Below are positions 1 through 57,162 of a DNA stretch of 64,000 bases, one piece after another. This DNA is from Squalus acanthias. Taxonomy: Eukaryota. The stretch lies in NCBI GenBank assembly GCA_030390025.1, contig CM059427.1:188542001-188606000 (forward strand). The letters run 5' to 3'. The notes below the pieces were generated by a model, which was not told the DNA's origin, made no database searches, and saw nothing but the letters and a program-made list of their open reading frames with translations. Both the position numbers and the translations under genes were made by a program. Every line of letters starts with the position of its first letter. Within the stretch, counting starts at the first letter, position 1.

Positions 1-2
1 GC

Positions 3-17824: not shown

Positions 17825-17914
17825 ATGACTGAGAACCTCAGTGTGTTGTGTGTCACTGTGCTGGGAGCTTTGCTGCTCAGTCTCTGGACTACTTCACTAG
17901 TCTCTTCCCACAAG
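17825..17914 (+). other. Candidate orphan signal-peptide exon MTENLSVLCVTVLGALLLSLWTTSLVSSHK
   Basis: ATG 17825 (A/G at -3), hydrophobic core, donor AAG|GTAGGC (phase 0); GAGGAAG and TGTGGTT motifs just upstream. Confidence 0.4.
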
Positions 17915-27680: not shown

Positions 27681-29132
27681 GCTGTAGCGTGCCTAAACGA
27701 AAGATGAGGTGCTGTTCCTCGAGCTTGCGCTGCGCTTCCGTGGAACAGTGTAATAGGCCGAGGACGGTGAGGTCAGAGTGGGAGTGAAGCGGTGAATTAA
27801 AGTGACCGGCGACCGGGAGCTCGGGGTCCCCCTTATGGACTGAATGGAGGTGTTCCGCAAAGCGGTCACCCCATCTGCGTTTGGTCTCCCCAATGTAGAG
27901 GAGACCACATCGTGAGCAGCGAATACAGTATACTAAATTGCAGGAAGTACAAGTAAATCACTGTTTCACCTGGAAGGGGTGTTTGGGGCCCTGGACATTG
28001 GGAAGAAGGGAGGTATAAGGGCATGTGTTGCATCTCCTGCGCTTGCATGGTAAGGTGCCGGGTGAAGGGGAAGGGGTGCTGGGGGTGGTAGAGGAGTGGA
28101 CTAGGGTGTCGCGGAGGGTGCGGTCCCTGCGGAATGCTGAAAGGGGAGGTGAGGGGAAGATGCGTTTGGTGGTGGGATCACACTGGAGGTGGCGGAAATG
28201 GCGGAGGCTGATCCGTTGAATGTGGAGGCTGGTGGGGTGAAAGGTGAGGACAAGGGGAACTCTATCGTGGTTCCGGGAGGGAGGGGCAGGGGTGAGGGCA
28301 GAAGTGCGGGAGATAGAACGGACATGGTCGAGGGCCGTGTCGACCACGGTAGAGGGGAATCCTCGGTTGAGGAAAAAGGAACACATGTCGGAAGCACTGG
28401 TATGGAAGGTGGCATCATCAGAGCAGATGCGGCGGAGATGGAGAAACTGGGAGAATGGAATAGAGTCCTTACAGGAGGCGGGGTGGGAGGAAGTGTAGTC
28501 CAGGTAGCTGTGGGAGTCAGTGGGCTTGTAGTGAATGTTAGTCAATAACCTATCCCCAGAGATGGAGACGGAGAAGTCGAGGAAGGGAAGGGAAGAGTCG
28601 GAGATGGACCATGTGAAGGTGAGGGAAGGGTGGAAATTGGAAGCATAGTGAATGAAATGTTCTAGTTCAGGGCGAGAGCAGGAGACGGCACCGATACAGT
28701 CATCAATGTACCGGAAAAAGAGGTGAGGGAGGGGACCCGAGTAGGACTGGAACAAAGAGTGTTCCACATATCCCATGAAAAGTCAGGCATAGCTAGGACC
28801 CATGCGTGTACCCACAGCAACACCTTTAATTTGGAGGAAATGGGTGGAGTCAAAGGAGAAGTTGTTCAATGTGAGAACAAGTTCAGCTAGGCGGAGGAGG
28901 GTGGTGGTGGATGGGGACTGTTTGGGCCTCTGTTCAAGGAAGAAGCGGAGCGCCTTCTCAGGCCATCCTGATTTGGAAAGCTGTTTTACCTCATTTCTTT
29001 CTGTTCACAGTCTGAAGTGTTAAACATATTCAGGAATGTGCCTCGGTTTTACTTCTGGTGGTTTTCTGGTGCTATATATATATCTATATCTATTTGTATA
29101 TTTCTTACAGGGAAAGAGATGGAATCTGTGAA

Positions 29133-29220
29133 ATGAGGCTACGATTTTTCTGCAACAAAATGCCAGCTGGTTTGATGTTCAGTTTCTTGGTGTTTCTACT
29201 TCCGTCTGTTTTCACACAAA
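29133..29220 (+). CDS. CD4/LAG-3-like Ig gene, signal-peptide exon (exon starts 29111; second in-frame Met 29160)
   Basis: Acceptor TTTCTTACAG; MRLRFFCNKMPAGLMFSFLVFLLPSVFTQ; phase-1 donor A|GTAAGT. Confidence 0.75.
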
Positions 29221-29348
29221 GTAAGTGCCTTATTTCCACCAATCACAGTCATATTGTTTTACTTTATCAGAGTGTTTAATGAATTCACCCAGCTAGTATT
29301 CAGCAAGCAAGTAAGGTCTTTATTTTCCTGTCCCTGCTCCTTTAAACA

Positions 29349-30040
29349 GGGGTAGAGTTTCTGCTTTGGGCACAATCGGCGATTCCGGTGCAAATTGCGC
29401 ACAAAATTGCGCCCGTTTTGAAATTTTTTTTTACTCGAGTTTCCGCTCAAACTCATTTGCATATCGGCAAAAGCAAAATCTGTCCTGAAGCAGCGCAATT
29501 GGGCAACGTTTTAAAACATCATTTTACTTTATAAAGTTGCTTTAAAAAGTATTCCTTGATATATTTAAGAGAGGTAACTTGGTGCAGTTTGATTAATACA
29601 GCTGGAAATGGGTTTATCAAAAAATAAGCATTTTAAATCACAGTATCAAAGCCAGCTGTGAGTAATCCGATTATAAATTATTAAAATTTGGGGAACTGTT
29701 GTGAGTTCCTTATAAAAAATAATCATTCAAACATACCTATTAATGTCCTTACGCACAAAAGTTCCAGCTTATTTTTTGGAGCCTCCTCGAAGGACTGCAA
29801 ATGAGCGCAATTATTGGAAACTCCCAATGCTGATTAATTCATCCTGGGGGCGTGGCCAGTTTTGTGGGCGGGGCCAGTTTCCAGCGCGATGATTTTAAAA
29901 GTCACGCAAAAGATCGTGGAAACTATAAATATGTTGAACGCAATTTCGGCTTAAAATTCCGCGATCTTTTGCACCGTTTACGCCGATATCGGGGAAATCG
30001 TGCAGAAAAAAACAGCGTGATCGAGCGGAAACGCCAGGCC
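29349..30040 (+). mobile_element. Harbinger-type MITE (two-unit GC-box version)
   Basis: End GCGGAAACGCCAGGCC is inverted to the family head GG...GAGTTTC.GC; colinear with 44858-45940. Confidence 0.65.
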
Positions 30041-32436
30041 GCTGTGTAAGTTCACTTTTCAGAGTCCAACAGTGGAACAACTTAATAAAATGAAAAATGT
30101 TAGCAGATTTCTCATTGCTCTTCAATTCCTTTTCCCGATCTGTCTTTTAATCTCTCTATCTGTCGATACATCTACTCTTGCATGTAGCAAACGTCCATCA
30201 GAGCATTTTCTGTTTTCTATGATATGTTATATTTGATCAATCAACAGCTGAACAGATTGCATGTGGTATAGAATGGGTCAAAAGTAAAAACAATATTAAA
30301 ATGTTAATAAGCGTTAAAATTCAGAATTATTGAGAATCATTTTTTGTGTTCGAGGCTGTGCAACATATAAAAGTTACATTTGGGTAAAACATCATTTGAA
30401 AAGGTTTGAAGGTTTGTCGCTGATCCTCACTTCGGGTCACATCTTGGTTTAGTGTCCAAAGATGTTTAAACATCACTGTGAATACAGTGTGGACAGAGCC
30501 ATTGTGGTTTTGGTAATTGTGATGTGAGCTGGTATTTAATCAAGACTTACAGACACATGGGATTTACTGCTTTAGATCACTTCCCTTGTGAAAATGTAGA
30601 TAAAATAATGGTTACAATGAGGATTAATTGACTGTTACCCTTGAAATGAAGGAAGATAATGATTCAAAGGTGGAAATGTAGTTCAGGGAATGGTAACGAT
30701 GAACTATTGACTGAATGATGTGACCACTGTCACCAGAGGCCACCTGGAAGTATCCAAATGCATTAACGTTAAATGTCACTGTCACAGCCACAGTTGTCAC
30801 CTTTCACAGATAAGGCAAAGCACCTGGTGGAAAGAGGCTGCAAGTCAGGTTCCAAGAGCTGGTTTATCTCTGTCACGGTGTCTCATCAGACAAGGGGTGA
30901 GGATGCAGGAACTGCCTGATCGCTGCCCACCTCAGGAAACCCCGTCACAGGACAAACGGGGTGGAGACCCGACGTAACCGTATCCTGCACCAATTTCACT
31001 CCCCAAGTTCCACCTTGATAATTCCCCCTGCAGACCAGGAGTCGGGAGGTGATTTGGAGACTTTATTTTCAGTAACAAGAAATTTAGCCATGACCTCTCT
31101 TTTTATTTTGATTACTTTTTGTACTAATAATGTATATTACATAGAATTACATAGAATTTTACAGCACAGAAACATCTCTCTCATGTGCCTATCTATGTTC
31201 AGAAAGCTCTGCTAATAGATACACAGAATATCGACTGAAAGTGTTCTGTTTTTCCCTACAACCGTGCCTGCAGTGAAGGTGACATGATACAGTGCTTTCT
31301 CCTCATGTATTAGTGCTTCATTGTAACCTTCTCTGGAATGAACTCCTCAATGAAGGAGCTTTGCCAGCTTCTTGGGATTGTAATGGGAGAGGATTTTGCT
31401 CTCCCTTCTTGCCCAATTTTGGATAGATTGTGGTCGGCAGGGGCAGAAAGTGGGGATGGGGATCCGGCGGGCTGCTCCCTGCAGATTGTCGTCACTTCAC
31501 TGAATATATGGACCCAAATATGGAGAGATTTATTCAAATTGCGTGGAGTGGCCAAGTGTTATCAGATGTTACATTCACCGTCATTACCGCCATAACAATG
31601 CTGGAACACAAGGGACAGCAGCATGTTCCCGGCATCTAGTGTTGTGTTGGCTTGCGGGAGTGGATTTCAATTTCAAATATCTATCTGAAGCAAAGCAATT
31701 GATCATGATCAAAGCAATTTGATCCCTCCCTGTCCCAGGTGGGTCCCTCAGATCAAAGCACGAGTCCTGCTGGGAGCCCACAATAATTATGGAAATTATG
31801 CTGATCTCAGGAAATTCCCCAGGGATCACGGTTTGGGAAGACAGGCGGGCACGGAGTCTGTCACACTGACCTACAGACAGATTATGGCCAAGTGGAAAAT
31901 CCTGCCTCCCTTTGTTATCGGTAATCCTGTGGGTTGCCTGGTCACTGGTGGTCCAGGAGAACCAACAACGTACTGGGCATTGCACAAGAGGAGGGGAGCT
32001 CACTTGTAGAGATCGCTGACCTGATTTATGAGCCTGAAGTGTTATGACTGCACCAGTACTGTATTCAGTTTTAGGAGAATACTGATTATTGTGATGGTAT
32101 TTCAGATTTCTTAACAATGTCGGAGTAACGATTCCCCTTCCACACTCCCAGTAAATGCTGGAAATACGGATTGTGAAATTGGACACTGGAGGCCCACAAG
32201 GTCAGAGTGCAGTGGCAGAAATTCACCCTCTAATGTCCTAAAGTATCACTGGATTAGGCCAGATTATTCCAGACAGTCAGCTCTTCACCGGGGTGTGTAT
32301 GTGTCATTGCTGAATCCATTGTATATAAATAATATGACTGTAAATAAATGAAGTCCAATATTAATCATTACAAACATGGGATTAAGGAGTTACAGTTTAA
32401 ATATTTAAATACTTACATTGTTCCTCTTTCTAACAG

Positions 32437-32778
32437 GAAACACAAATCATATTTATTTTTTGGATAAGCGAGATGACATTCCATTAAAAGGACCGGACAA
32501 TCCTGGGAATGGCCCTGTTGTCTGGGAATGGAAACCACACTCAGGGCAAGAAATCCAGCGGCTGGTTACTTTTCACAAAGGGGGTTCGGGCTTGTGGGAC
32601 GCACAATGGAACGATCACTTTAGCAACAGCGACTTGTACTGGATAGTAGAATGGAGTCCTTGGACCATTAATGTGAGAATTAGAAAACCCACATTTAAAT
32701 TTGCGGGATCGTTCATCTTGACTCAAACACAGCCGAGTAATAAAATCCTGAAACAGTATGAAATATTTGGGATCAAAG
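32437..32778 (+). CDS. CD4/LAG-3-like Ig gene, D1 (V-like, no cysteines)
   Basis: Acceptor CTCTTTCTAACAG, donor G|GTGAGT, phase 1-1, 342 nt open; VVWEWKP (C strand), INVRIRKP (E), FAGSFIL (F). Confidence 0.75.
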
Positions 32779-34009
32779 GTGAGTGGGACAAAGTCTAGAA
32801 AAGGTTCAATAAAATGATTCTCAGTGAATAATTTCATGTGTAATGATGAGAGATTGCCAGGATCACGTGAGATTTATATCACCCAGTGCAGAGAGCATCT
32901 CTCATTAAAACAACCAGGGGAAAGATTTTGTTCATTGTTTCTCCTGAAATGGTCAACATGAGTAAAAACATTTTGACAATTTCACCAGAAATAGCAAACC
33001 GAGTAATCTACCCCACAGAGAGTATTATGGTCTGTACACTGGCACACTCTCTGTCAGATGTACTGAATTATGTTACCAAACCAATAGATCCCTTGTAGTA
33101 ATGGGCCTCAGCGCGATGGGACAGGAATAAGATTGGCCAGAATCACTGCTCCTGATTGCTGTCCAGTGAACCTGTTAGATGTGTCACTTGGTTGAGGTCC
33201 CACAGGATGTCAAGTGTCCCTGGAACTCGTACTATGCCAAGGAGTTAACGCCTTCAGGAAAGCAAGAAGAACATGGCAGAGAAAAAGAGATACATTGGGG
33301 GGAATTTTAACCTCAAAAAATGTTTGGCTTGGGGTCGGGTGGGAGGTTCCAGAGTTAAAAATCTGAATCCTGGCCCCAACTCGCCTCCAACCCGCCCACT
33401 TCTGGTTTTAACTGAGGTGGGACGGGGGTGGGGGGGCAGCTAACCTGCTCGCAGGTGGTGAGTTCACACTTTAAATATTCTAATGGGGTTGGGTGCCTCA
33501 TAGTGATCCACCATTTTAAATTTAACTGTGGGCTCGGGGAACCCGCCAGCTAAAGGGTGACGAGGACAGCTGGACCCAGGGTTTCTGCCTCGCCACCCGC
33601 CCACGATCGGTCCCCTCCCCCCGACCCTTTTGATCTCCCCCAAACTACCCCTGGGGCCTCCAATACCCCCACATGAGATCTCCGATCTCTGATCCCCCCT
33701 CCAGCCTTCCGACCTCCCCCCTCCGGCCTTCCAACTTCCCCCCTGCAGCTTTCCAACCCTCCTCCGATCTCCGATACTCCCTCTGGCCTTCTGACCTCCC
33801 GATCTCTCCCCTCCGGCCTTCTGACCTCCCCACTCGGACCTCCGATACCCCACTCCTGCCTTCCAACAACCCTACCATTCCCTCACTCCCTGCTCTCTGT
33901 GGCCTGGTGCCCCAGGCCTTTACATTCGAGCCTTTCCTTCTGGCTGGCTGCGGGAGGGAAACAGAGATTTAAAATGTTGATCAGGCCCTGTCGCTAAATT
34001 CAGTCTCGC

Positions 34010-34570
34010 CACTCCCTATCTGCCTCCAAAGCCTTTCCTCCATCTACAAGGCACAAGTAAGGACTGTGATGGAATACTCTCCACTTGCCTGGATGAGTGC
34101 AGCTCCAACAACACTCAAGAAGCTCGACACCATCCAGGACAAAGCAGCCCGTTTGATTGTCACCCCATCCACCACCTTAAAAGTTCACTCCCTGCTCCAC
34201 CAGCGCACTGTGGCTGCAGTGTGTACCATCTACAAGATGCACTGCAGCAACTCGCCAAGCCTTCTTCGCCAGCACCTCCCAAACCTGCGAACTCTACCAC
34301 CTAGAAGGACAAGGGCAGCAGGCGCATGCGAGCACCACCACCTCCAAGTTCCCCTCCAAGTCACACACCATCCTGACTGAGAAGTATATCTCCGATCCTT
34401 CATCATTGCTGGGTCAATCTCCTAGAACTCACTACCTAACAGCACAGTGGGAGTACCTACACCACACGGACTGCAGGGGTTCAAGAAGGCAGCTCACCAC
34501 CACCTTCTCAAGGGCAATTCGGGATGGGCAATAAATGTTGGCCTTGCCAGTGACGCCCAGATCCCATAAA
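34010..34570 (+). mobile_element. LINE ORF2 3' end
   Basis: YKAQVRTVMEYSPLAWMSAAPTTLKKLDTIQDKAARLI; GGGCAATAAATG tail. Confidence 0.8.
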
Positions 34571-35662: not shown

Positions 35663-35932
35663 TTGAGTCAAGTCCACAGAGTGCTGTGGTGGGCAGTGAC
35701 GTTACACTCAGCTGTACCATCTCCAAACTCTCAGATACAGTCAGTCTTCAATGGAAACAGAGAGACTCATCTCAGCAGAACAGGAGCAACACTGATCAGA
35801 TCCGACTAAATAACACAGTCTATCTGATAGTCAAACATGTTGCAGTAGAGGATAAGGAGTTGTACGCGTGTGAAGTGCAGGAAGATGGATCCATTATTCT
35901 CACTGGAAAAGCAGATTTTTCTGTGGCCCAGG
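35663..35932 (+). CDS. CD4/LAG-3-like Ig gene, D2 (C2-type)
   Basis: Acceptor TTTTTCACAG, donor G|GTAAGT, phase 1-1; GSDVTLSC...LQWK...EDKELYAC. Confidence 0.9.
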
Positions 35933-36879: not shown

Positions 36880-39650
36880 TAGAATCATAGAAATTTACAG
36901 CACAGAATGAGGGCATTCAGCCCATCTTGTCCGTGCCGGCCGACATAGCTATCTACCCTAATCCCACTTTCCAGCATTTGGTCCGTAGCCTTGGAGTTTA
37001 CGGCACTTCAAGTGCATTTCCAAGTACATTTTAAATGTGGTGAGGGTCTCTGCCTCTACCACCCTTTCAGGCAGTGAGTTCCTCTGTGTGAAAAGAATTC
37101 TCCACAAATCCCCTCCAAACTTCCGACCAATTACTTTAAATCTAAGCCCCTGGTTATTGATTCTGCTGCTAAGGGAAATAGATCCTTCCGCTAAGGGAAA
37201 TAGGTCCTTCCTATCCACTCTATCTAGGCCTCTTATAATTTTATACACCTCAATTAGGTCTCCCCTCAGCCTCCTCTGTTCCAAAGAAAACAACCCCAGC
37301 CTATCCAATCTTTCCTCATAGCTAAAATTCCCCAGCCCAGGCAACATCCTCGTAAATCTCCTGTGCACCCCCTCTAGTGCAATCACATCCTTCCTGTAAT
37401 GTGATGACCAGAACTGCACGCAGCATTCTAGCTGCGATTTAACTAGTGTTTTATACAGTTCAAGCATAACCTCCCTGCTCTTATATTCTATGCCTCGACT
37501 AATAAAGGCAAGTATCCTGGATGCCTTCTTAACACCTTATTTACCTCTCCTGCTACCTTCAGGGATCTGTGGACATGCACTCCAAGGTCCCTCTGATCTT
37601 CTACACTTCTCAGTGTCCTACCATTTATAGTGTATTCCTTTGCCTTGTTAGCCCTCCCCAAATGCTTTACCTCACACTTCTCCAGATTGAATTCCATTTG
37701 CCACTGTTCTGCCCACCTGACCAGTCCATTGATATCTTCCTGCAGTCTGCAACTTTCTTCTTCATTATCAACCACACGGCCAATTTTTGTATCATCTGCA
37801 AATTTCTTAATCATACTTCCTACATTCAAGTCCAAATCATTGCTATTTACCACAAAATACAAAGGACTGAGTACTGAGCCCTGCGGAACCCCACTGGAAC
37901 CAGCCTTCCAGTCACAAAAACACACTTCGACCATTACCCTTAGTTTCCTGCCTCTGAGTAAATTTTGGATCCAACTTGCCACTTTGCTTTGGATCCCATG
38001 GGCTTTTACTTTCATGACTAGTCTGCCATGCGGGACCTTATCAAAAGCCTTGCTAAAATCTATATAGACTACATCAAATGCACTACTGTCATCGACCCTC
38101 CTTGTTACCTCCTCAAAAATTTCAACCAAGTTACTCAGACACGACCTTCCCTTAACAAATCCATGCTGACTCTCCCTGATTAATTTGTGTCTTTCTAAAT
38201 GAAGATTTATCCTGTCCCTCAGAAGTTTTTCCAATAATTTTCCCACCACCGAGGTTAGGCTGATTGGTCTGTAATTACTCGGTCTATCCCTTTCACCCTT
38301 TTTAAACAACAGTACCACGTTAGCAGTCCTCCAGTCCTCTGGCATACACCTGTAGCCAGAGAGGATTGGAAAATGATGGTCAGAGCCTCTGCTATTTCTT
38401 CTCTTACTTCTCTTAACAGTCTGGTATGCATTTTATCCGGGCCTGGGGATTTATTCACTTTCAAAGATGTTAAACCCCTTAATACTTCCTCTTTCACTAT
38501 GTTTATTTCATCTCATATTTCACACTCCTCCTCCCTGATTGCAATTTCTGCATCGTCCCTCTCTTTTGTGAAAACAGACACAAAGTATTCATTAAGAATC
38601 ATACCCATGTCTTCCGCTTCCACACACAGGTTACCTTTATGGTCCCTAATAGGCGCTACTCTTTCTTTAGTTATCCTCTTGCTCTTAATGTATTTATAAA
38701 ACATCTTTGGGTTTTCCTTGATTTTACTTGCCAATATTTGTACATGCCCTTTCTTTGCTTTCCTAATTTACTTTTTAATTGCACCCCTGCACTTTCGATA
38801 CTCCTCTGGGGTTTCTGCAGTATTGAGCCCTGTCATAAGCTTCCCTTTGTTTCTTTAACCTTCCCTGTATGCCCCTTGACATTCAGGGAGCTCTAGATTT
38901 GTTAGTCCCACCCTTTTCTTTAAGGGAACTACTTGCTCTGAACCCTCACTGTCTCCTCCTTGAATGCCTCCCACTGCTCTGACACTGATTTAACTTCAAG
39001 TTTCTGCCTCCAGTCCACTTTGGCTAAATCACTTCTCAGCTTAGTAAAATTAGTTTTCCCCAATTGAGAACTTTAATTCCTGGTCCATCCTTGTCCTTTT
39101 CCATAACTACTCTAAATCTTACTGAATTATGATCACTACCACCGATATGCTCTCCCACTGATACCCTTTCCACCTGCCCAGCTTCATTCCCTAAAACTAG
39201 GTCCAGAACCACACCCTCTCTTATTGGGCTTGCTATGTACTGGCTACAAAAGTTCTCCTGAATGCATTTTAAGAATTCTGCTCCCTCTATGCCTTTCACA
39301 CTAATTCTATCCCAGTTAATATTAAGGAAGTTGAAATCCCCTACGATTACTGCCCTATTTTTGCATGTCTCAGAAATTTGCCTACATATTTGCTCTTCTA
39401 TCTCCCTCTGACTGTTCGAAGGTCTATAGTACACTCCCAGCAGTGTGATTGCCCCTTTTTTGTTTTGCAGTTCAACCCATATGGCTTCATTTGATGATCC
39501 TTCTAAGATATCCTCCCTCCTCACAGCTGTAATTGAATCTTTGATCAATATTGCGACTCCCCTCCTTTTGTATCCCCCTCTCTATCTTGTCTGAAAACCC
39601 TGTAACCAGGAATGTTGAGCTGCCAGTCCTGCCCTTCTTTCAGCCATGTC
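36880..39650 (-). mobile_element. CR1 LINE ORF2 (endonuclease plus RT), degenerate
   Basis: IVGDFN, LDLVL, SDHN (APE endonuclease); NYRPISLTS, DFSKAFDKVPH, GVPQGSVL, FADDTK; several frameshifts. Confidence 0.95.
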
Positions 39651-41626: not shown

Positions 41627-41629
41627 ACA

Positions 41630-41830
41630 GGAGTATGTTAGGGAAGGCTGAGTGCTGGGGATGTAATGAGAGGCACAGCAGGATGAGGTTGAGTGTGGCT
41701 TTGTACTAACATTTCCTGATCTAATGAGATCATTGAAATGTTTGCGGCACTGCACCCAGGTCCGCCTGAACACATCCCTGCTTGTGCCCTCCTCTGCAAT
41801 CTGCAACCAGGCTGTTTTGGTCTACTGGGG
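41630..41830 (-). pseudogene. Harbinger Myb/SANT-like DNA-binding gene fragment
   Basis: IAEE......RRTWVQCRKHFNDLIRSG trihelix motif followed by a GTAATG-like donor. Confidence 0.6.
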
Positions 41831-44477: not shown

Positions 44478-44816
44478 ATTTACGCAATAAGAGTTACACA
44501 CTTTATCGGTCAGGCACAGATCACAGTGAACTCTCCCTGATTTGTGAAGCTAAATCTGAATTCAGTAAAACTAAATGGACTTGGAGGTCACGTCATATTC
44601 AGAATCAAGAGAAAGAAATAGCTTCTACTTTCAGATCTAAGCCTATCGAAGTAAACAGGACCTATTTTGGGAGTCGACTTGTGCCCACAGTGGGAAATTT
44701 TAATGGCAAGAACTTCAGTGTGAGGATTGTCCCCGTACTGTTTGAAGATGCTGGAGTTTACACTTGTTCTCTGGGGTTATTGAATTATGTGACCATTAAA
44801 CTAATCACAGTTAAAG
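44478..44816 (+). CDS. CD4/LAG-3-like Ig gene, D3 (V-type)
   Basis: Acceptor CTCTCTATTTCAG, donor G|GTAGGA, phase 1-1; ELSLIC...KWTW...FGSRL...NFSVRI...EDAGVYTC. Confidence 0.9.
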
Positions 44817-44857
44817 GTAGGAGACAGAATGCTGCAGGTGTTTTCAATGATAAAGTT

Positions 44858-45940
44858 GGGTAGAGTTTCCGCTTTGGGCACAATCGGCGATTCCGGCACA
44901 AATTGCGCCCAAAACTGCGCCCGTTTTGAAAAGTGTTTCCCCCCCACCCCCCGAGGTTCCACTCAATCTCATTTGCATATCACCAAACACAAAATCTGCC
45001 CTGAACCAGCGCAATTGGACAGTGATTTAAAACCTAATTTCTTTTTGCTAATATTGCTTTAAAAATATTCTAGGCTACATTTAAGAATGGTAACTTGGAG
45101 CAGTTTGCTTAATACAGCTGAAAGTGGGTTTGCCACAAAAAATAAGCATTTTAAATCACAGTATCGATCCACCACCTGTGAGTAACTGATTTTAACTGAC
45201 TGAAAATGACATAAAAAAATATACAGAACTATTTTCCAGTTAGATTGGGGCACAGTAGTCAGTTCCTTAGTAAATTGAAAAAAAATAATTTCAAATCCTT
45301 TCAAAACGTACGTATTCGTGTCCTTGCGACCAAAAGATCCAGCTTCATTTTTGGAGCCTCCTCGTCGGCCTGCAAACGGGCGCAATTAGTGGAAACTCCC
45401 GATGGTGATTGGTTCACCCTGTGGGCGGGGCCAATTTTGTGCGCAGGGCCAGTTTTATAGGCGGGGTCAGTTTTGTGGGCGGGGTCAGTTGTGTGGGCGT
45501 GGCCAGTTTTGTGGGCGGGGGCCAGTTTTGTGGGCAGGGCCAGTTTTGTGGGCGTGGCCAGTTTTGTGGGCGGGGACCAGTTTTGTGGGCAGGGCCAGTT
45601 TTGTGGGCGTGGCCAGTTTTGCGGGCGGGGGCCAGTTTTGTGGGCAGGCCAGTTTTGTAGGTGGGCCCAGTTTTGTGGGCATGGCCAGTTTTGTAGGCAG
45701 GGCCAGCTTTTTGGGCGGGGACAGTTTTGTGGGCGGGGCCAGTTTTATAGGCGGGGCCAGTTTTATAGGCGGGGCCTGCTTCTAGCGAGACGTCTTTAAA
45801 ACTAGCGCAAAAGATCGCGGAAAATCAAGTTGCATTGAATGCAATTTGCGCTTAAAATTCCGCTACTGTTTGCGTTGGTTACGCCGATATCGGGCGAATT
45901 GTACCGAAAAAAACAACACAATGGGGTGCAAACTCCAGGA
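44858..45940 (+). mobile_element. Harbinger-type MITE with expanded GC-box array
   Basis: Colinear with 29349-30040; end GCAAACTCCAGG. Confidence 0.7.
45420..45776 (+). repeat. 18-bp tandem repeat TTTTGTGGGCGGGGCCAG, about 20 units
   Basis: Directly visible; units carry GGGCGGGG or GGGCGTGG boxes. Confidence 0.95.
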
Positions 45941-45984
45941 CATTCTTTAAAATCTAAATGATTTTCTTGTTTACACATTCACAG

Positions 45985-46248
45985 CTGAACCATCTGATGC
46001 AGTGACTGAGGGAGACACCGTTACCCTGACCTGCTCTGTCTCTGATGTCACTGAATCAATGAGACTTGTTTGGATCAGTAGCGATGGCAAAACTGTTGAA
46101 GAGAAAACTTTTAAGGACCAGAAGCAGGAAGAGGATTTGTTACGGCTGATTATTCAAAAAGCTGATCGAGACAGAAGGAACTGGACATGTGTTTTGTTTC
46201 ATCAAAACACGCCCAGCATTTTAATTCCATATTATCTGAAGGTTAACA
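45985..46248 (+). CDS. CD4/LAG-3-like Ig gene, D4 (C2-type with WxC)
   Basis: Acceptor TTCACAG, donor A|GTAAGT, phase 1-1; EGDTVTLTC...LVW...NWTC. Confidence 0.9.
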
Positions 46249-47624
46249 GTAAGTGTCTCACATTTTGCTCATTGTAACCTCCATAGAAATTTCTTGCTGC
46301 TCTTTTGTTATGATAACCTTTTACTTTTCATATTCTATTGCACTCCACATTACTCAGAGTTTAATCAGAGGTGTTGACATACAAACAGTTTAACATCAAA
46401 AGTCAAACTATACAGCTCAAAGCAATGGAAGAAGAAATACAGTGCGGTGTTGGGTCATAGAAACATACATAGAACAGTGGAAGGAGCGCACGTCATCCCA
46501 AGCAAACCACCCACCCGCCCCTTCAACCACCGTCTGCCCCACCTGTGACAGAGAATGTACATAGAACATAGAACATAGAACAGTACAGCACAGTACAGGC
46601 CCTTCGGCCCTCGATGTTGTGCCGAGCATTGTCCGAGACCAAGATCAAGCTATCACACTCCCTATCACTCTGGTGTGCTCCATGTGCTTATCCAATAACC
46701 GCTTGAAAGTTCCTAAAGTGTCCGACTCCACTATCACAGCAGGCAGTCCATTTCACACCCCAACCACTCTCTGAGTAAAGAATCTACCTCGGACATCCCT
46801 TCTATATCTCCCCCCATGCACCTTATAGTTATGCCCCCTTGTAACAGCTGCCTCTACCCGAGGAAATAGTCTCTGAACATCCACTCTATCTATCCCCCTC
46901 ATCATCTTATAAACCTCTATTAAGTCGCCTCTCATCCTCCTCCGCTCTAAAGAGAAAAGCCCCAACTCCCTCAATCTTTCCTCATAAGACCTCCCCCCCA
47001 AACCAGGCAGCATCCTGGTAAATCTCCTTTGCACTCTTTCCAATGCTTCCACGTCCTTCCTATAGTGAGGTGACCAGAACTGCACACAATATTCCAAATG
47101 TGGTCTCACCAAGGTCCTGTACAGTTGCAGCATAACCTCACGGTTCTTAAACTCAAACCCTCTGTTAATAAACGCCAACACACCATAGGCCTTCTTTACT
47201 GCTCTATCCACTTGAGTGGCAACCTTCAGAGATCTGTGGATATGAACCCCCAGATCCCTCTGCTCCTCCACGTTCCTCAGAACCCTGCCGTTGACCCTGT
47301 AAACCTTATTCAAATTTGCCCTACCAAAATGAATCACCTCGCACTTATCAGGGTTAAATTCCATCTGCCATTTTTCGGCCCAGCTCTGCATCCTATCAAT
47401 GTCTCTTTGCAGCCTACAACAGCCCTCCACCTCATCCACTACTCCACCAATCTTGGTGTCATCAGCAAATTTACTGATCCACCCTTCAGTCCCCTCCTCC
47501 AAGTCATTGATAAAAATCACAAACAGCAGAGGACCCAGCACCGACCCCTGTGGCACACCGCTGGTAACTGGTCTCCAGTCCGAAAATGTTCCATCCACCA
47601 CCACCCTCTGCCTTCTATGAGATA

Positions 47625-50300
47625 TGATGCGGAGATGCCGGTGTTGGACTGGGGTGGACAAAATTGAGAGGTCGCACAACACCAGGTTATAGTCCAACAG
47701 TTTTATTTGAAATCACAAGCTTTCGGAGCTATCGATTTGCTCCTTCCTCAGGTGAAGTAAATTAGATACAGAATCTCCAAAGCATATATAGATGGAAAAC
47801 AAAGAATGTGTACTTTACAATTGCAGACCAATAAATTAAATCATCCTGACTATCTGCCGAGGTGTGATAAAGTTAATTAAGTCAGCCAGGAAGGTACCAC
47901 ATCAAAGACATAGCAAGATACAACTGAGACAATGAGGTGTAGTCGCAGGGGTTCTAACGTGTCAAAAGCTGCCGTCTGTATGTAAAACGAAAAGCTTTAA
48001 CATTTTTTTACTTTTTTACTGGGAAAATTTTTACTTTTTTTACTGGGAATCACATCTGTGAACAAGCTAACGACGACTCGAGTCCGGATCACGTCATGTA
48101 TCGTGACATAAACCCAAGATCCCGATTGAGACCGTCTTCATGAGTGCGGAACTTGGCTATCAGTTTCTGCTCGATGATTTTGCGTTGTCGTGTGTTTCTA
48201 AGGTTGCCTTGGAGAACGCTTACCCGCAGATCCGAGGCTGAATGTCCTTGACTGCTGAAGTGTTCCCCGACTGGGAGGTAACAATCCTGCCTGGCGATTG
48301 TTGCGCGGTGCTCGTTCATACGTTGTCTCAGTGTCTGCATGGTCTCGCCGATGTACCATGCCGCGGTGCATTCTTTCCTGCAACGTATGAGGTAGACAAC
48401 GTTGGCCGAGTCACATGAGTATGTACCATGTACCTGGTGGGTAGTGTCCTCACGTGTGATGGTGGTGTCTGTGTTGATGATCTGGCATGTCTTGCAGAGT
48501 TTGCCATGGCAGGGTTGTGTGGTGTCGTGGTCGCTGTTATCCTGAAAGCTGGGTAATTTGCTGCGAACGATGGTACTTCTGAGGTTAGGCGGCTGTTTGA
48601 AGGCAAGTAGTGGAGGCATGGGGATGGCCTTAGCGAGGTGTTTGTCGTCATCGATGACATGTTGAAGGCTGCGAAGAACATGGCGTAGTTTCTCCGCTCC
48701 GGGGAAGTACTGGACGACGTAGGGTACCCTGTTGGTTGTGTCCCGTGTTTGCCTTCTGAGGAGGTCTATGCGATTTTTCGCTGTGGCCCGTCGGAACTGT
48801 CGATCGATGAGTCGAGCGTCATATCCCGTTCTTACGAGGGCGTTTTTCAGCGTCCGTAGGTGTCCATCGCGTTCCTCCTCGTCTGAGCAGATCCTGTGTA
48901 TTCGCAGGGCTTGTCCATAGGGGATGGCTTCTTTAACATGGTTAGGGTGGAAGCTGGAGAAGTGGAGCATCGTGAGGTTGTCCGTGGGCTTGCGGTAGAG
49001 TGAAGTGCTGAGGTGTCCGTCTTTGATGGAGATTCGTGTGTCCAGGAATGAGACTGATTCTGAGGAGTAGTCCATGGTGAGTTTGATGGTGGGATGGAAC
49101 TTGTTTATGTTATCGTGTAGTCTTTTCAGTGATCCTTCGCCATGGGTCCAAAGGAAGAAAATGTCGTCGATGTATCTGGTATACAGCGTTGGCTGGAGGT
49201 CCTGTGCAGCGAAGAAGTCTTGCTCGAACTTGTGCATGAAGATGTTGGCGTATTGGGGTGCGAATTTGGTCCCCATGGCTGTTCCGTGTGTTTGGGTAAA
49301 AAAATGGTTGTCGAAGGTGAAGACATTGTGGTCAAGGATGAAGCGGATGAGTTGTAGGATGGCGTCTGGAGATTGGCTGTTGTTGATGTTGAGTACTGAG
49401 GCTGTTGCAGCGATGCCGTCATCGTGGGGGATACTGGTGTAGAGTGCCGATACGTCCATCGTGGCAAGGAGTGTTCCTGGTTCAACTGGTCCGTGGGTGC
49501 TGAGTTTCTGTAAGAAGTCTGTAGTGTCGCGACAGAAGCTGGGGGTTCCCTGTACGATGGGTTTCAGAATGCCCTCGACGTATCCAGAGAGGTTCTCACA
49601 CAGGGTTCCATTGCCTGATACGATAGGACGTCTGAGACAACGTATGAACGAGCACCGCGCAACAATCGCCAGGCAGGATTGTTACCTCCCAGTCGGGGAA
49701 CACTTCAGCAGTCAAGGACATTCAGCCTCGGATCTGCGGGTAAGCGTTCTCCAAGGCAACCTTAGAAACACACGACAACGCAAAATCATCGAGCAGAAAC
49801 TGATAGCCAAGTTCCGCACTCATGAAGACGGTCTCAATCGGGATCTTGGGTTTATGTCACGATACATGACGTGATCCGGACTCGAGTCGTCGTTAGCTTG
49901 TTCACAGATGTGATTCCCAGTAAAAAAAGTAAAAATTTTCCCAGTAAAAAAGTAAAAAAATGTTAAAGCTTTTCGTTTTACATACAGACGGCAGCTTTTG
50001 ACACGTTAGAACCCCTGCGACTACACCTCATTGTCTCAGTTGTATCTTGCTATGTCTTTGATGTGGTACCTTCCTGGCTGACTTAATTAACTTTATCACA
50101 CCTCGGCAGATAGTCAGGATGATTTAATTTATTGGTCTGCAATTGTAAAGTACACATTCTTTGTTTTCCATCTATATATGCTTTGGAGATTCTGTATCTA
50201 ATTTACTTCACCTGAGGAAGGAGCAAATCGATAGCTCCGAAAGCTTGTGATTTCAAATAAAACTGTTGGACTATAACCTGGTGTTGTGCGACCTCTCAAT
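47625..50300 (-). mobile_element. Penelope-like element, 5'-truncated, with inverted pLTR
   Basis: 49633-50300 is the reverse complement of about 47662-48331; TSD (T)TCTATGAGATA. Confidence 0.95.
48089..49630 (-). CDS. Penelope RT plus GIY-YIG endonuclease, 5'-truncated but stop-free
   Basis: RPIVS, DVSALYTSIP, GTAMG, RYIDD, FLD, YRKPT; NVVYLIRC, WYIGET, R.R..EH, GLN. Confidence 0.95.
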   Translation of the reverse strand, partial: RPIVSGNGTLCENLSGYVEGILKPIVQGTPSFCRDTTDFLQKLSTHGPVEPGTLLATMDVSALYTSIPHDDGIAATASVLNINNSQSPDAILQLIRFILDHNVFTFDNHFFTQTHGTAMGTKFAPQYANIFMHKFEQDFFAAQDLQPTLYTRYIDDIFFLWTHGEGSLKRLHDNINKFHPTIKLTMDYSSESVSFLDTRISIKDGHLSTSLYRKPTDNLTMLHFSSFHPNHVKEAIPYGQALRIHRICSDEEERDGHLRTLKNALVRTGYDARLIDRQFRRATAKNRIDLLRRQTRDTTNRVPYVVQYFPGAEKLRHVLRSLQHVIDDDKHLAKAIPMPPLLAFKQPPNLRSTIVRSKLPSFQDNSDHDTTQPCHGKLCKTCQIINTDTTITREDTTHQVHGTYSCDSANVVYLIRCRKECTAAWYIGETMQTLRQRMNEHRATIARQDCYLPVGEHFSSQGHSASDLRVSVLQGNLRNTRQRKIIEQKLIAKFRTHEDGLNRDLGFMSRYMT

Positions 50301-50806
50301 TCTATGAGATAGCCAGTTACTTATCCAATCGGCCAAATTTCCCTCTATCCCACAACTCCTTACTTTCTTCATGAGCCGACCATGGGGAACCTTATCAAAC
50401 GCCTTACTAAAATCCATGTATACGACATCAACTGCTCTACCTTCATCTACACACTTAGTTACCTCCTCAAAGAATTCAATCAAATTTGTTAGGCAAGACT
50501 TACCCTTCACGAATCCGTGTTGACTATCCCTGATTAAGTTGCCCCTTTCCAAATGGTCATAAATCCTATCCCTCAGGACCTTTTCCATTATCTTACCAAC
50601 CACCGAAGTAAGACTAACCGGCCTATAATTACCAGGGTCATTCCTATTTCCTTTCTTGAAGAGAGGAACAACATTCGCCACTCTCCAGTCCTCTGGCACC
50701 ATTCCCGTGGACAGTGAGGACCCAAAGATCAAAGCCAGACCCATTGTCAGGCAGATATAGATGGAATACATCATTCGAGGTACAATTATGGGGAAGGAGA
50801 GAGATG

Positions 50807-51037
50807 CCCTGACCTGCTCTGTCTCTGATGTCACTGAATCAATGACATTTGTTTGGATCAGAAACTAAAGCAACATTGTTGAAGAGAAATCGTTCAATGG
50901 ATGGAATTGGGAAGGGAAATCATTGAGACTGATTATTCAGAAAGCTGACAGAGACAGAGGGAACTGGATATGTGTTTTGTTTTATCAAAACAGCCCCAGG
51001 TTTTACCCCTGTACTATCTGGAGCCCAGTGCTAAGTG
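50807..51037 (+). pseudogene. Decayed duplicate of the D4 exon
   Basis: LTCSVSDVTESM.FVWIRN*...LRLIIQKADRDRGNWICVLF; in-frame TAA, late frameshift, donor altered to GCTAAGT, no acceptor. Confidence 0.9.
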
Positions 51038-52704
51038 ACTCCGCGTTTGCGCTCAACAGAAAATTCTTGTCACTAATTGTTCTTTTTACCAGAGATGACC
51101 CCTCATCCTTTGTGTCCTATTTCTCTCCACTATTGCTCACAGCCTCCACATTCATAATTATTCACACCACAGTTTGAAACCACAAGAAATGCCACACAGT
51201 GGCTCAGACACATTGGGGGTAATTTTGACTTCGGGCGATAGAGTCAAACGAGCGATATCGGATCAGCCGCCCGTTATACATCGCTCCTGATTTTCAGTTC
51301 CATTGATTTCAAAGTCAAAATTGTATCGGAAGGTTGGAAGGAGTGTGCAGTTTCAGATATGGAGGCTGAAGGCATGTGGCCTGATCAGAGAGTAAGGAGA
51401 GGGAAGAGTATGTTTCCTGTCTCGCCGCCCATGATTTTCTGATCAGCACGGGCTGTGTGTGAGGTTCTATCACTGGTGCAGAGCCTCAGAAAATCTACCC
51501 TCAGATAACTCAGCACAGCCTGGGATCGAGTTTGGTACCTTCCCGGTCCGTATGTCTCAGATACGCATTGAGACAAGGCAAGCATTTATTTTTGAGAGCA
51601 AAATGGTACAGAAGCCATTTCCGTTGGTTTTCTGACCCAAAATCAATCCGAATCTTTAGGCAGAATGTTAAAAAAAAAATCACAGCAAAAAGCAATTCGC
51701 AGCTGCAAAAATTGCAATTGAATGTCTCCAAACTTCAGGCTCAGAGAAACTCTTCTTCTCTGCCTGTCTCAGCTGATCCTGGAAACATCGGAGCCTCATC
51801 ACTCTCATTCTAACTGAGGGCTCGTGCACTGTGAGCACAAGAGCAGGAAACTTGAGGCTCTGGGCGGCCTCCTGAAACAGGCTTTAGGTGTCTTGCACAT
51901 GTAATTCTGGGTCCTATTGCCAACTGGAGGACCCCGATTGAAATTGGTGGACAGATGGGCGGAGTTTATGCCGGGCCAGCTCCAGCTCACTGTACCAGGT
52001 TTTGAGTGGATGAACCACTGGTGTTTAACAGGACCATTGGAGGCCACTCAAGAAATGGCCGGAAAATCTTTTAACAGTTACATTTCTGTGGAGCCAGGGG
52101 GAGATGGAGTGCTTCTCCTGGCTCCACAATAATACTGTGGCCTGGGTTCGACCTCCACACAAGCCCACGGGTTTGGCTCCCCAAAGGACCTACCTGTGGG
52201 CTGGTTCAGCATCGAAGCTGGCTGGAATTCATCAGGACCCCACTGGGACACAACGATTGGCATCTGCGTATCGTCTGTTTCATTCTAATGAGAGCTGATG
52301 GTGAATTTCATCTGGCCCCAGGCCGGCAGGGATCGGCGCTCAAAGCAATCACTTCGCCAACTCGATGCCCATTTTGGGACAAAGTTCAATTTCTCAGACT
52401 TGGAACCTGCAGATTTAAAAGCAGAGGAATGAAAGGGGACCTTAAAGAGCTTTATAAGATAATGAATGGAACAGAAAATATTGGTCTGGAGGAAAATCTC
52501 TGGACTGGTATAAGAGGCAGTTGGAGACTGTGATGATGAGACTGTAAGATTACATCGAAGGATTAGCTGGAGGAACCGACTATCTTCCCTCATCCCTTGT
52601 CTTTATTTATCCTCATAATAATAAGGTTGAGTCCATGAGGGTGCTGCCAGAAAATGAAAAGTGAAGGTGTAGTGTTAGGAGATTTAAATCAGTCAGGAAA
52701 TAAT

Positions 52705-53469
52705 GGCCCAAAAATTCGGCTGAATACGGGAGAGTACGAACTGTGCACTCTCGCGTATTCAGTCCCGAAGTGCCGGTTTTCTGCATGCACTGCGCATGCA
52801 CAGAAAACCGGCACTTCCGGTATGGCGAAGGGGGCGGTTCCTAAGTGAACCGCGTGTGCACTACAGGCTGTGCGCACGCAGCACACTTAGGTTTTTTTTC
52901 AGGTTTCAATACGAAGGTAAGTATGGAAGATTTTACACATGAAGAAAGGAGGCGTAAGACCCCCTTTTAACGAGGTAAGTAGTTAATGAAGTATTGTTTT
53001 ACATTTTTTTCAAAAGGTTTATCTTTTTTAGAGACTTTAAAGAAAGGTAGGTTTATTTTTATAACTTTTAAAAAGAATTTAAATTTTTTCAAAAATTTTA
53101 ATTTTTGTTTAAAGTGGTTAATTTATTTAACTATAGTTATTTTATTAATGTGATGTTTTTTTTTTAAATTTATTTGAGGTTTAGCTGTTCTTTTGGGGGC
53201 AATTTGTATTCATAGTTTTGACAGTTCTCCTGTCAAATCTATGAATGAAAGATGGTGTGCTGCCATTGGCTCTCCATGGCACACGTGATCCCAGAGGTCG
53301 CATCGAACTAACTGCGTCTCTGGGACACGCACACACTGCGCACCGGCACCAGGGAGAGGCCCAGGACCAGAAGTTCGTGTGGGCCCGAAACACAACGGCC
53401 GGCGCGGAGTGTGATATCGCGGGGGATCCATACCCCCACGGCAAGCCTCCGAGTCAAATTTCTGGGCCA
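52705..53469. mobile_element. Harbinger-type MITE
   Basis: TGGCCCAAAAATT...AATTTCTGGGCCA termini. Confidence 0.55.
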
Positions 53470-54576
53470 TTAAAAGGAGTAAAAAGCATCAATGGTACAT
53501 GGCTGAAATAAAGAACAGAGGGAAAAGAAACAAAAAGAAGCATCAGCTACACTGGGTTAAAAAAACCTCACAGGATTGAAGGAATCAAAAGCTTGTTAGA
53601 CCGTTAAACTTACTGTGAATGCAGCTCTATCACCAACGTTGTTTGTGCCGGATTCTCACACAGGTCTTGTGATTCACTGAGCAATGGGAATTCCGACAGA
53701 GTATCCGTGATAGGCACCAGACAGGAATTCACCACCTCAACAGCACTTGTACACGCACTGAGTGTTAATAATAGGCTCAGCAATATTACAAGGCAAGGTT
53801 TCACAACCAGCAGCACAGTGCGTGGATCCTGCGTTCGCTCCCACACTAGAAACCCCGCCAGAGGAACTTGGGGTCGATGTGAACTATCGGGTGTCTGACC
53901 GGCGGAGCGGGAGGGCGATGGACGGCCGCCCGATGGTGCTGACGGCAGGCCCGGTCCATGTTGACGGACGGGCCTCATTCGCATCACGCCGGCAGGCCTT
54001 GGGCAGAAATCGATGGGCCTACCGCCTGACTCCGCCCACCCAGCGCTAGGCCCGGGAGAAGATCGCCGCGGCAACAGTGACTGCAGGAATGGGGGGAAGG
54101 GGGGCTGAGCCATTCCCGGCCATTTTCCGGGACATTACCATCCCGATTCCACCAGCCGGGAGGCCTCAAAATTCAACCGCTCACTCCCTGAACAGTGGGA
54201 TTATAGGTCATTGAATACAATGGCACATTGAGGCTTGCAAACCAGATATTAGAGAAGACAATGACATTGATATGGAGAGTAAACTAAAGACAAATGATTG
54301 GGGATAACATGGAAGATCACATTCAATGTTCTGTTTAATAGTTTAAAATGAGGTTTGATAATCTTTACCATGATCAATGCCATGGGAGATGACCCAGTCT
54401 AACATAACTATAATGGAAGTCTGTCTACTGATGATATTGTCCACCTCATCTAGTGTTACAATATTATATTGATTAAGATTTTGAAATAAAATAGTAAATT
54501 AAATGTACCATAGATAAACATTACAACAACACACAAAACTTTCAAAAACATGCGTGGTAGCACTGTTAAACATTAA

Positions 54577-55419
54577 GGGCTGGATTTTCAATGACCCGTG
54601 GAGTCGGGTTTGGAGGCGGGGGGGGGTTGAAGTTGCAGATTCGGGGGTCCCGACCCCATCCCGCCTCCAACCCACCTCCATGCCAGTTTCTCTGGCGGCG
54701 GGTACCCGACCTGTGCTGAAACCCGACTCCCCGAGGCGGGAAGGGTTTAGTGACAATTAACTGCCTGTTAACAGGTAGTTAACAGGCAGCTTTTTGCATA
54801 ATCCCTATTTTAAAAAGAAAAGTGTGGGCTTCCCGACAGGTGGCAACCACGCCAAGTTATCGGGGCAGGCCGTGGGTCTGCAGGGGTTGGAGGGGTCGAT
54901 ATGTCCAGTGGGCAGGTGAGTGATGGGTGCATGTGTGCAGAGGTAAGTGTGTAAGGTAAGTGCTAAGTGTTGGAAAAAGTTTTACTTACCTTAACTTCCT
55001 CCTGCAGGTGTCAGCCCTTCAGTTCTCGGGAGTTAGAAATCTCACCGGCACAGAAAGCAGGAAAGCCGTGGTTCTGTCAAAAACTGCATCCTTCTGTTTT
55101 CTGTGCTGGAATGATTTCTAACTCAGCCTGAGAGGAAGCACTGAAGTTAGAAATCATATTGTCAGTGTTTGACAGCTTCACAAAGCTGTCAAACGCTGAT
55201 ATTTCATCTGTCAAAAGCTCTTGACAGATAAAATGTCAGTCTGTGACGTCACCTGTTGCCGGGTGGCCCTTAATTGGCCTGCTGAGCCCACTGGGCAGGT
55301 TCAACAAGGTCAATCAAGGGAAAATACAGTGGGTTGGCCACATCTCGATGGAGGCGGGTTCACAAGCCAGAATGTATGATTCCCGACCCCAACCCGACCC
55401 CAGATACAAAATTCAGCCC
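54577..55419. mobile_element. Harbinger/PIF MITE
   Basis: GGGCTGGATTTT...AAAATTCAGCCC TIRs and TAA TSD on both sides. Confidence 0.8.
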
Positions 55420-55937
55420 TAATAGTTTCAACAAAATAGCACTTTGTCAAAATAGGTGTTTTTTAAGTGAATGCCAGTTACAGATCTGTGGCTGTCTCAC
55501 ACCTTGATGGTTAATGTCTCCCCAGACAGCACAGCCGAGATTGGGAACTCGCCACCTGGGGAATCTCAGGTGTGAATCTGTATTCTGCCACTCTGGTCAG
55601 GACAACACTTTCACATCCAGTTTGACAGTTTAGATAATGAATGACCCAATTTTGAGTTTATTCACTCCCTTTTCATTCACTCAGAGCTGCTCACTTTAAT
55701 TCTAAACCATTGCACCCACAAGAATCTGTTGAAAATAGTCAAATCCAAACACATAAAATGTGACAAAAAGAACACAACGTGGACTTGGTCTTGATGGAAA
55801 TATTTGGTTCTCTGGCTCCCAGTGTTTAAAGCAAAATGTTTTCACTTTCCACATCTTTTATAGAATGACTGGCAGGAGTATTTAAATATTAAACGAGATG
55901 GAGAGTGAAACTAAAATATCAACTTTGTCCTTCACAG

Positions 55938-56041
55938 TGAGACCACTTCCGGAGATTTGGATCATCACAGTTTCGGGCTACTTGTTGGTTATTCTGGGCG
56001 TTGCTGTTGGACTAATTTGCTGCTTGAAGAGGATGACCAGA
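55938..56041 (+). CDS. CD4/LAG-3-like Ig gene, transmembrane exon
   Basis: Acceptor GTCCTTCACAG, donor AGA|GTAAGA, phase 1-0; MRPLPEIWIITVSGYLLVILGVAVGLICCLKRMTR. Confidence 0.85.
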
Positions 56042-56305
56042 GTAAGAATTTCTTTATCTTTCCAGTAAATCAGGAATTAGTGCCGAGCTGTCACTTGACA
56101 CTGAGAAAACTGATGTTCGTTGAACAGATATTATGTGGTCACAAACTGTATTTTAAAATTTCATTTAAATATTGTACATTGTATTGAATTTAAAGGAATC
56201 ATCAGTTAAAGGAAGCAATTGTTCCAAATTGTGTGAATTCTTATAGCTTTGAATATTTTTCCTGATTCAAACGGCAATAACTTCCCTGCTCCCACTTTCC
56301 ATCAG

Positions 56306-56356
56306 GCTCTGAGGAAGGAATCAGGGAGATCTCGGAGGGCCATACCTGATTATTAA
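56306..56356 (+). CDS. Candidate last exon A: cytoplasmic ALRKESGRSRRAIPDY*
   Basis: Acceptor CCCACTTTCCATCAG, phase 0, AATAAA at 56509. Confidence 0.55.
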   Translation, partial: ALRKESGRSRRAIPDY

Positions 56357-57054
56357 TGAATGGACAATGCTCAAACTAGGAGCCCAAACTTTTAATATGT
56401 TTCACTGATTATCACAAATATTCCTCTTGGAAATTAAGAACTTGATTGTCATCAGAAACCAATAATATGTGAACAGATGTTTGAAAATGAACAACCAGTA
56501 AAAATTGCAATAAACTGAACAGTAAGACTGTATTTAGTGAAAATTAATGATTATGAGAAACTTTACATCAGATCACAGCTCTGGGAGGTAACAAAAGAGA
56601 CAGAATCAGTAGCTTTAGTAGGAGAGCATTGTTCTGTCAGAAGCAGAGTTGTAAGTTCAAGGAGGTAACTTTACTGGTGAGGTCAGTCAACCACAGGGAG
56701 AACCTCTCAGAAATGTGGTCACACTATGGCCATGAACTTTGACCTCAATGGTGTGACCTTATTTTACATTCATACATTCATAGTAGGAAAAATCTTCCAC
56801 AATATCTGCTATCAGTAACTGGAGTTAGTTTATCATTTTAATCAGGTCTGTTCCTTCCAAATACTGAAGTTTATAATTGTTGAAATTATCTCATTAACAC
56901 TGAGCCAGTGATGTGTGGGTCATGGTCTGTTCTGTTGCCCATTCTGTAAAATTACTCCTCTATTCGACTTCCTCTTTATCCATCACTTCCAGTCCAGTGT
57001 TTATTATTGAAGGATAAGCTCTTTATTTAAAGCACATTTCTTGCCTCTTGTCAG

Positions 57055-57162
57055 ATATCGAACAGCGGGAATCCACCCGAGCCGACAGAAAATAAAACGG
57101 ATGATTCAGAAGAAGCCGTCGCATTACAGACCCTGAACTCTGATACTGATCTGAGATCATAG
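57055..57162 (+). CDS. Candidate last exon B: acidic tail ISNSGNPPEPTENKTDDSEEAVALQTLNSDTDLRS*
   Basis: Acceptor TTTCTTGCCTCTTGTCAG, phase 0, AATAAA at 57834. Confidence 0.55.
   Translation: MSNSGNPPEPTENKTDDSEEAVALQTLNSDTDLRS

Follow-up and report, generated by a model that had tools for sequence, protein, structure and literature searches.

A CD4/LAG-3-like V-C2-V-C2 gene in a tandem, putative paired-receptor-type cluster of Squalus acanthias, with isoleucine in place of the usual membrane lysine

A gene for a receptor with four immunoglobulin (Ig) domains was reconstructed in a 64,000-nucleotide stretch of Squalus acanthias DNA (assembly GCA_030390025.1, contig CM059427.1, here C3). This stretch, C3:188542001-188606000, is referred to as the window, and its features are given in forward-strand coordinates; the gene lies on the plus strand. 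The leader exon with the signal peptide (29111..29220; acceptor 29111, start codon 29133, coding part 29133-29220) is followed by a V-like, cysteine-free D1 exon of class D1a (32437..32778; no Pfam match), a C2-type D2 exon of class D2a with a YxC motif (35663..35932; Pfam Ig_2/Ig_3), a V-type D3 exon of the D7 class (44478..44816; Pfam V-set below cut-off) and a C2-type D4 exon of the D8 class with a WxC motif (45985..46248), which starts at the downstream one of two tandem acceptors. A transmembrane (TM) exon of activating type (55938..56041) encodes Ile (ATT) where most relatives encode Lys (AAA), and the 35-residue tail B (57055..57162) ends the gene.

The first six of these exons are bounded by AG and GT, have the phases 1,1,1,1,1,0 and gave 469 stop-free codons; the same six exons and phases had been proposed by a first-pass annotation made from the letters alone. 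Its further observations, WxC in D4, YxC in D2 and a TM segment ending in two cysteines (C462-C463, with no further Cys in the tail), were all found again on re-reading. The only cysteines of the Ig domains are residues 161, 213, 256, 330, 363 and 415, two each in D2 to D4 and none in D1. The gene model is correct, far beyond chance, because exon identity to annotated shark proteins reaches 89% and because its joints recur in assembled contigs. The leader-D1 joint (29220>32437) was found in contigs of all four sequencing runs, the D1-D2 joint (32778>35663) in two of the four, and the TM-tail B joint (56041>57055) in all four (2 studies). As the contigs were matched at 85-90% likeness, these joints, which the first-pass annotation had proposed to check, support splicing at the level of the family and not of the window copy itself. 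Two alternative tails had been offered. Tail B, giving a product of 504 aa from seven coding exons, is the real end of the gene, since it has seven homologous tails (P0044, P0048, P0049, P0053, P0057, P0058 and P0074) and its joint occurred in every run; tail A (485 aa, acceptor 56306) was rejected, with no homologue among the relatives and no joint to its acceptor among those listed.

At D4 the upstream AG of the tandem acceptor, kept in 20/20 fetched D4b paralogues, has been lost from the window copy; the downstream acceptor is therefore used and the D3-D4 joint is two residues shorter. The shorter form is also present in annotated isoforms (P0048, P0054, P0071), and the D3-D4 joint seen in contigs used the paralogues' upstream acceptor. 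Upstream of the leader, 17825..17914 (plus strand, donor after 17914) is likely the 3' part of a predicted 5' non-coding exon; gene models P0012 and P0005, from two other sharks, begin with matching sequence, and an upstream ATG inside it opens a frame that ends at a stop within the next exon. A 5-codon upstream open reading frame was also noted at 29119-29136, with its stop overlapping the main start codon and its ATG altered in a twin copy described below.

The domains of the window gene correspond to D1, D2, D7 and D8 of paralogues with eight Ig domains. The D2 exon was 81-83% identical to D2 vs 52-65% to D6 of the 8-Ig homologues P0005 and P0009, the D3 exon 84% identical to D7 vs 72% to D3 of P0005, and the D4 exon 89% identical to D8 vs 78% to D4 of P0005. 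Most simply, the gene would have arisen by in-register loss of four domains from the 8-Ig plan.

Genome searches with five exon queries, which give lower bounds, returned at least 74 matches for D4, at least 65 for D1, at least 60 for D3, at least 23 for the TM exon and at least 35 for a tail of the type bearing immunoreceptor tyrosine-based inhibitory motifs (ITIMs). Nearly all of these lay within a 3.1-Mb cluster (C3:186.43-189.52 Mb), the whole family cluster being on C3. The D1 matches of the cluster comprised at least 33 of class D1a, at least 19 of D1b and at least 4 of D1c; its TM exons encoded Lys in at least 14 cases, Ile in at least 3 and Gln in at least 6; and two ITIM-type tail exons, with at least 16 and at least 19 matches, were interleaved with similar ectodomains. 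By chromosome order about 35 genes were recognized (33 D1a and 4 divergent D1c starts, some broken), each with four or eight Ig exons followed by a TM-Lys exon or an ITIM-type tail, and both tail types occurred with both ectodomain lengths. One inhibitory TM and tail could be followed in full, both ITIM-like motifs included, at C3:186.57-186.59 Mb. The map leaves out matches on C26, C1512, C9 and C3:173.8 Mb and secondary fragments; the family copy on C26 is broken. Ectodomains shared between ITIM-bearing and charged-TM members within one cluster form the layout of paired receptors. The single co-receptor-like gene of the first-pass annotation thus gave way to a multigene system, and the paralogue count that it had suggested came to these roughly 35 tandem copies; the dozens of copies, the cysteine-free D1, the TM Ile in place of Lys and the 5' exon ending at 17914 had all been missed.

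A twin of the window gene lies 483.6 kb upstream and is 99.3% identical over 35 kb; either it was duplicated recently or it is an allele that the assembly has put in tandem. Another member, divergent and of ITIM type, was observed 13 Mb from the cluster (L032-L034, C3:173.79-173.81 Mb; closest P0094), with a D1 that retains the strand-F cysteine and a tail with an ITIM-like motif.

Among 17 close TM exons, 14 encoded Lys and three Ile (window, twin and the paralogue L017), and six further, more divergent exons encoded Gln at that position (L018-L023, C3:186.65-188.53 Mb). Several of the Gln-type exons had altered donor sites. True GYL-type TM segments among the collected proteins P0001-P0251 had Lys in 17/17 cases, which span sharks, rays, bowfin and sturgeon, four of these rows being near-identical sturgeon sequences. 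In the window the replacement is a two-base change (AAA to ATT, bases 55992-55993). It is common only to the window gene with its twin and to L017, and since the five other TM differences of L017 are not shared, a short conversion tract is suggested. A motif check of tail B gave no tyrosine, no Phe, no Cx(C/H) and no (F/Y)xxL(D/E), in agreement with the earlier statement that no CD4 or LAG-3 tail motif is present. The window gene has an activating-type cassette without the membrane lysine.

The family extends well beyond this genome. Seventy-four elasmobranch relatives were collected (isoforms included; 247-1720 aa), nearly all named 'uncharacterized', with best identities of 84-85% in Pristiophorus and Heptranchias; an ITIM-consensus tail was present in 42/74 and the TM-Lys cassette in 10/74, and no immunoreceptor tyrosine-based switch motif was flagged in the tails of the 74. 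A profile search gave 471 representatives, of which the best 150 were listed and 30 looked up by name. Among the best 150, members were found in chimaera, bichir, sturgeon, bowfin, eels, tarpon, a mormyrid, otophysans, Denticeps and the frog Mixophyes, many of them without D1, followed by lamprey multi-V-C2 proteins, coelacanth CD4 (E 1.4e-21) and LAG-3 (2.5e-20). The ITIM and the TM-lysine cassette could each be followed from sharks as far as sturgeon. With P0203 as query, the genome gave no match. Database members carried only 'uncharacterized' or generic automatic names, and one nurse shark 8-Ig member (P0032) was observed under the misleading name 'obscurin-like protein'. No description of the family was found in a literature search, subscription journals lying outside its coverage, and the available parts of PMC8455134 and the PMC3964593 supplement held nothing relevant to it. 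The suggestion of an undescribed family therefore stood, and its restriction to cartilaginous fish did not, given the bony fish and frog members.

Structure was predicted with AlphaFold for the sawshark homologue P0057 rather than for the window protein (65-88% identity per exon to the window gene; pLDDT 88), and this model superseded a first fold from 18 sequences, in which D3 was poor. The model showed four beta-sandwiches with strands 123-138 and 328-343 continuous across D1-D2 and D3-D4, so that the ectodomain is predicted to form two rigid CD4-type V-C2 rods. A continuous V-to-C2 strand is described as rare and typical of CD4/LAG-3 in PMC10768021. In a PDB profile search LAG-3 was the best match after titin (E 3e-18); a narrower first profile had placed PD-L1 and MXRA8 above it. 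With the P0057 model, LAG-3 and CD4 took ranks 1-5 in Foldseek, and CD4 took ranks 1-4 in VIA-align (Z 16-17.9, but with a root-mean-square deviation of 12-22 A over four domains), D3-D4 of the model superposing on rat CD4 D3-D4 (1cid) at 2.4 A over 170 residues (Z 13.7). CD2, SLAM and Ly9 had no entry among the listed top profile and fold matches, which does not amount to exclusion.

Beyond these best profile and fold matches and the continuous strand, the family shares with CD4 and LAG-3 the V-C2-V-C2 arrangement, WxC in D4 and one exon per domain (PDB 1cid, 1wio, 7t0r, 8dgg, 8so3). It differs in its cysteine-free D1 and in the YxC of D2, where CD4 and LAG-3 have WxC in both D2 and D4; in having ITIMs or a TM Lys instead of an Lck clasp or FxxL tail; and in the number of Ig domains (four, eight or more), the dozens of copies in tandem, the location on another contig and the separate clade. 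Candidates for CD4 and LAG-3 themselves were found on contig C3283, a CD4-like gene with a candidate CxH at C3283:83146-97100 (+) and a LAG-3-like gene at C3283:182372-195859 (-), both with WxC in D2 and D4, and by sequence these are probably the CD4 and LAG-3 of this genome. The D1 exon from C3283, used as a query for homologues, gave no match, and the CD4-like gene is accordingly so called from tblastn, TM and tree position only. The two genes are on opposite strands in the assembly, whereas the published catshark arrangement is head-to-tail; no D3 could be located for the CD4-like gene, near an N gap. Genes of the locus were matched on C2106 (TPI) and on C5 and C7 (CSN7 and MLF, as family-level matches not assigned to a specific paralogue), with none on C3.

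In trees of V-C2 modules, the family D3-D4 (99/93) and D1-D2 (100/100) clades stood apart from CD4/LAG-3, lamprey and DICP-like modules. Family monophyly was supported at 99/93 and 96/96, and attachment to other groups was a polytomy in trees without a true outgroup. Two modules were left out, a duplicate from the frog and one from Denticeps that was badly cut, and the tree for the approximately unbiased (AU) test comprised 36/66 modules; grouping the family with DICP-like modules gave p 0.46 in this test. The relevance to co-receptor origins that had been proposed is no more than possible, because the deep part of the tree is a polytomy.

Of the domains, D1 varied most between paralogues. Its variation was concentrated at exon residues 48-77 (dN 0.23 vs 0.02 in residues 27-47), which form the C'-C''-D edge in the P0057 model. 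The contacts of CD4 with class II of the major histocompatibility complex (MHC) lie on the same edge, as described in PMC10768021. The ratio of nonsynonymous to synonymous substitution rates (dN/dS) was 0.96 (0.65-1.48) for D1a, 1.13 (0.65-2.11) for D3b and 0.37 (0.19-0.78) for D4b, after omission of L102 (stop), L060 and L066 (shifted ends) and the near-duplicates L039, L050, L062 and L080. D4b is under purifying selection, and D1a and D3b are indistinguishable from neutral.

Other receptor systems share parts of this pattern. Skate MDIR and mammalian KIR/LILR follow an ITIM vs charged-TM paired logic in multigene clusters, MDIR domains resembling those of CD300, TREM and pIgR rather than CD4. 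Lamprey multi-V-C2 proteins share V-C2 modules with WxC but form a clade of their own; the Lethenteron match (P0137) reached E 2.6e-33 when summed over repeats. In Atlas, with P0057 as query, clusters automatically named 'g6f-like' stood second and third in the ranking by features, next to clusters of CD4. Teleost G6F-like proteins reportedly carry a tyrosine-based activation motif of immunoreceptors (ITAM) in the tail and mark thrombocytes; the family has no ITAM and is set apart by this description, not by sequence. A lamprey CD4-like V-C2 molecule is mentioned in PMC10768021.

That the window gene is an orthologue of CD4 or LAG-3, or a co-receptor-like duplicate of one, is highly improbable, in spite of its V-C2-V-C2 domains, D4 WxC, juxtamembrane cysteines and LAG-3 and CD4 as top solved matches. 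The tail lacks both defining motifs (in PMC10768021 a Cx(C/H) Lck-binding motif defines CD4), the family forms its own clade of about 35 copies, and separate CD4-like and LAG-3-like genes exist on C3283; these points refute orthology to either gene. The first-pass view of a divergent CD4/LAG-3-like receptor that is neither thus held, the locus check off C3 supporting neither orthology. One of its arguments failed: an unsplit D1 does not discriminate against CD4, because D1 of shark CD4 and LAG-3 also has no intron according to the same paper. Also unlikely, to a lesser degree, is a reading in which the DICP receptors of ray-finned fish have the family as their cartilaginous-fish branch. DICPs, the diverse Ig domain-containing proteins, are likewise clustered paired receptors of repeated two-domain modules (D1a-D2a-D1b-D2b) with inhibitory, activating and, as in NITRs, 'functionally ambiguous' TM forms, ITIM forms inhibiting and charged-TM forms activating through an adaptor (10.1101/2021.06.11.448072), and the AU test did not reject the grouping. 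DICP domains, however, carry C23/C104 and usually two extra cysteines in that text, whereas D1 here has none and D2 to D4 two each, and the repeat unit is four different domains; the grouping was absent from the best trees. DICP-like sequences, labelled by cysteine pattern and not by database name, matched weakly (E 2e-14 to 1e-12 vs family members of ray-finned fish to 1e-102 and CD4/LAG-3 at 1e-21, among the best 150 of 471), no DICP-named protein was among the best 120 of 142 matches to P0215, and the bowfin family member has TM Lys vs Arg in the DICP figure legend of the text cited.

On the account that we consider likely as a whole, the gene product is a type I membrane protein of 504 residues from a large tandem family of paired-receptor type, and the window copy is a ligand-binding, non-signalling decoy. 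By analogy with paired receptors, ITIM members would recruit SHP-1/2 and inhibit, and Lys members would pair with an adaptor with an acidic TM (DAP12, DAP10 or FcR-gamma) and activate; a DAP10 family search gave no match anywhere, which is uninformative on absence. The variable C'-C''-D edge of D1 may bind a changing ligand, host MHC-like or pathogen, and the Ile copy could stand at the surface without an adaptor and compete for that ligand. As the membrane Lys is replaced by Ile and the tail has no tyrosine, the window copy is probably a decoy, possibly a decaying one. Several observations weigh against this account. The runs are RNA by guess only, none being recorded as such, and no exact D2>D3 joint was among the joints listed in the contig search. 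TM contigs in 4/4 runs encode Lys; the sole Ile contig (X1) has five further differences, as many as separate L017 from the window, and the window copy's own TM allele was seen in none of the four runs. The D1 patch also has high dS (0.24), so that with dN/dS near 1 positive selection on D1 is unsupported; the high dS points instead to gene conversion or segment exchange. The lost conserved acceptor and the large retroelement insertions fit decay equally well. Within the same paired-receptor system the window copy might instead be a young, still-open duplicate heading to a pseudogene, to which we give a minor but real share of the probability. The losses of Lys and of the acceptor, the lack of a contig with its TM allele, the several cluster copies already broken and the nearly identical twin, by which the copy is recent or allelic, favour such a fate; all seven exons are nonetheless open with intact splice sites, the shorter acceptor form is known from annotated isoforms, and the Lys>Ile change recurs in the more divergent L017, whose allele is apparently transcribed.

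The rest of the window is rich in repeats. The D4-TM intron holds a degenerate D4-like pseudo-exon (50806..51042, plus strand) with an in-frame stop and a frameshift, and similar remnants sit after D4b in other copies; it also holds a 530-codon reverse-transcriptase element with an inverted copy of its own end (48092-49871), which we take to be Penelope-like. A proviral remnant at 1-4800 (+) comprises a gag-like frame that includes a zinc knuckle, a stretch resembling a protease and an env-like frame of 585 codons, for which Pfam gave no match. A second endogenous retrovirus (11915-16826, minus strand), whose frames resemble gag, RNase H/integrase and TLV_coat env, coincides with an interruption of the alignment to the twin and may therefore have been inserted recently. 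LINE (long interspersed nuclear element) fragments were seen at 37491-39581 and 46756-47712, and minisatellite arrays with long repetitive open frames at 45300-45800, 59460-60290 and 62500-64000.

The family is the main finding, and among its kinds of member that of the window gene is the least typical. Known CD4 and LAG-3 make up a pair of genes, one activating and one inhibitory. In the family, a rod-like scaffold of the CD4/LAG-3 type appears to serve about 35 genes in a cluster shaped by birth and death, in which ITIM and TM-lysine cassettes can be exchanged. More speculatively, and at less than even odds, the family may be a third branch of the CD4/LAG-3 lineage, an ancient paired-receptor family of jawed vertebrates at large on the CD4 scaffold, with a diversified D1 edge that senses MHC-like or pathogen ligands and a large repertoire of natural killer or myeloid type in sharks. 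The use of this scaffold with the two cassettes, if confirmed, would be a concrete candidate for a large innate paired-receptor repertoire in sharks, would tie together the lineages of CD4/LAG-3, of lamprey V-C2 proteins and possibly of the DICPs, and would open the question of its ligands to direct testing.

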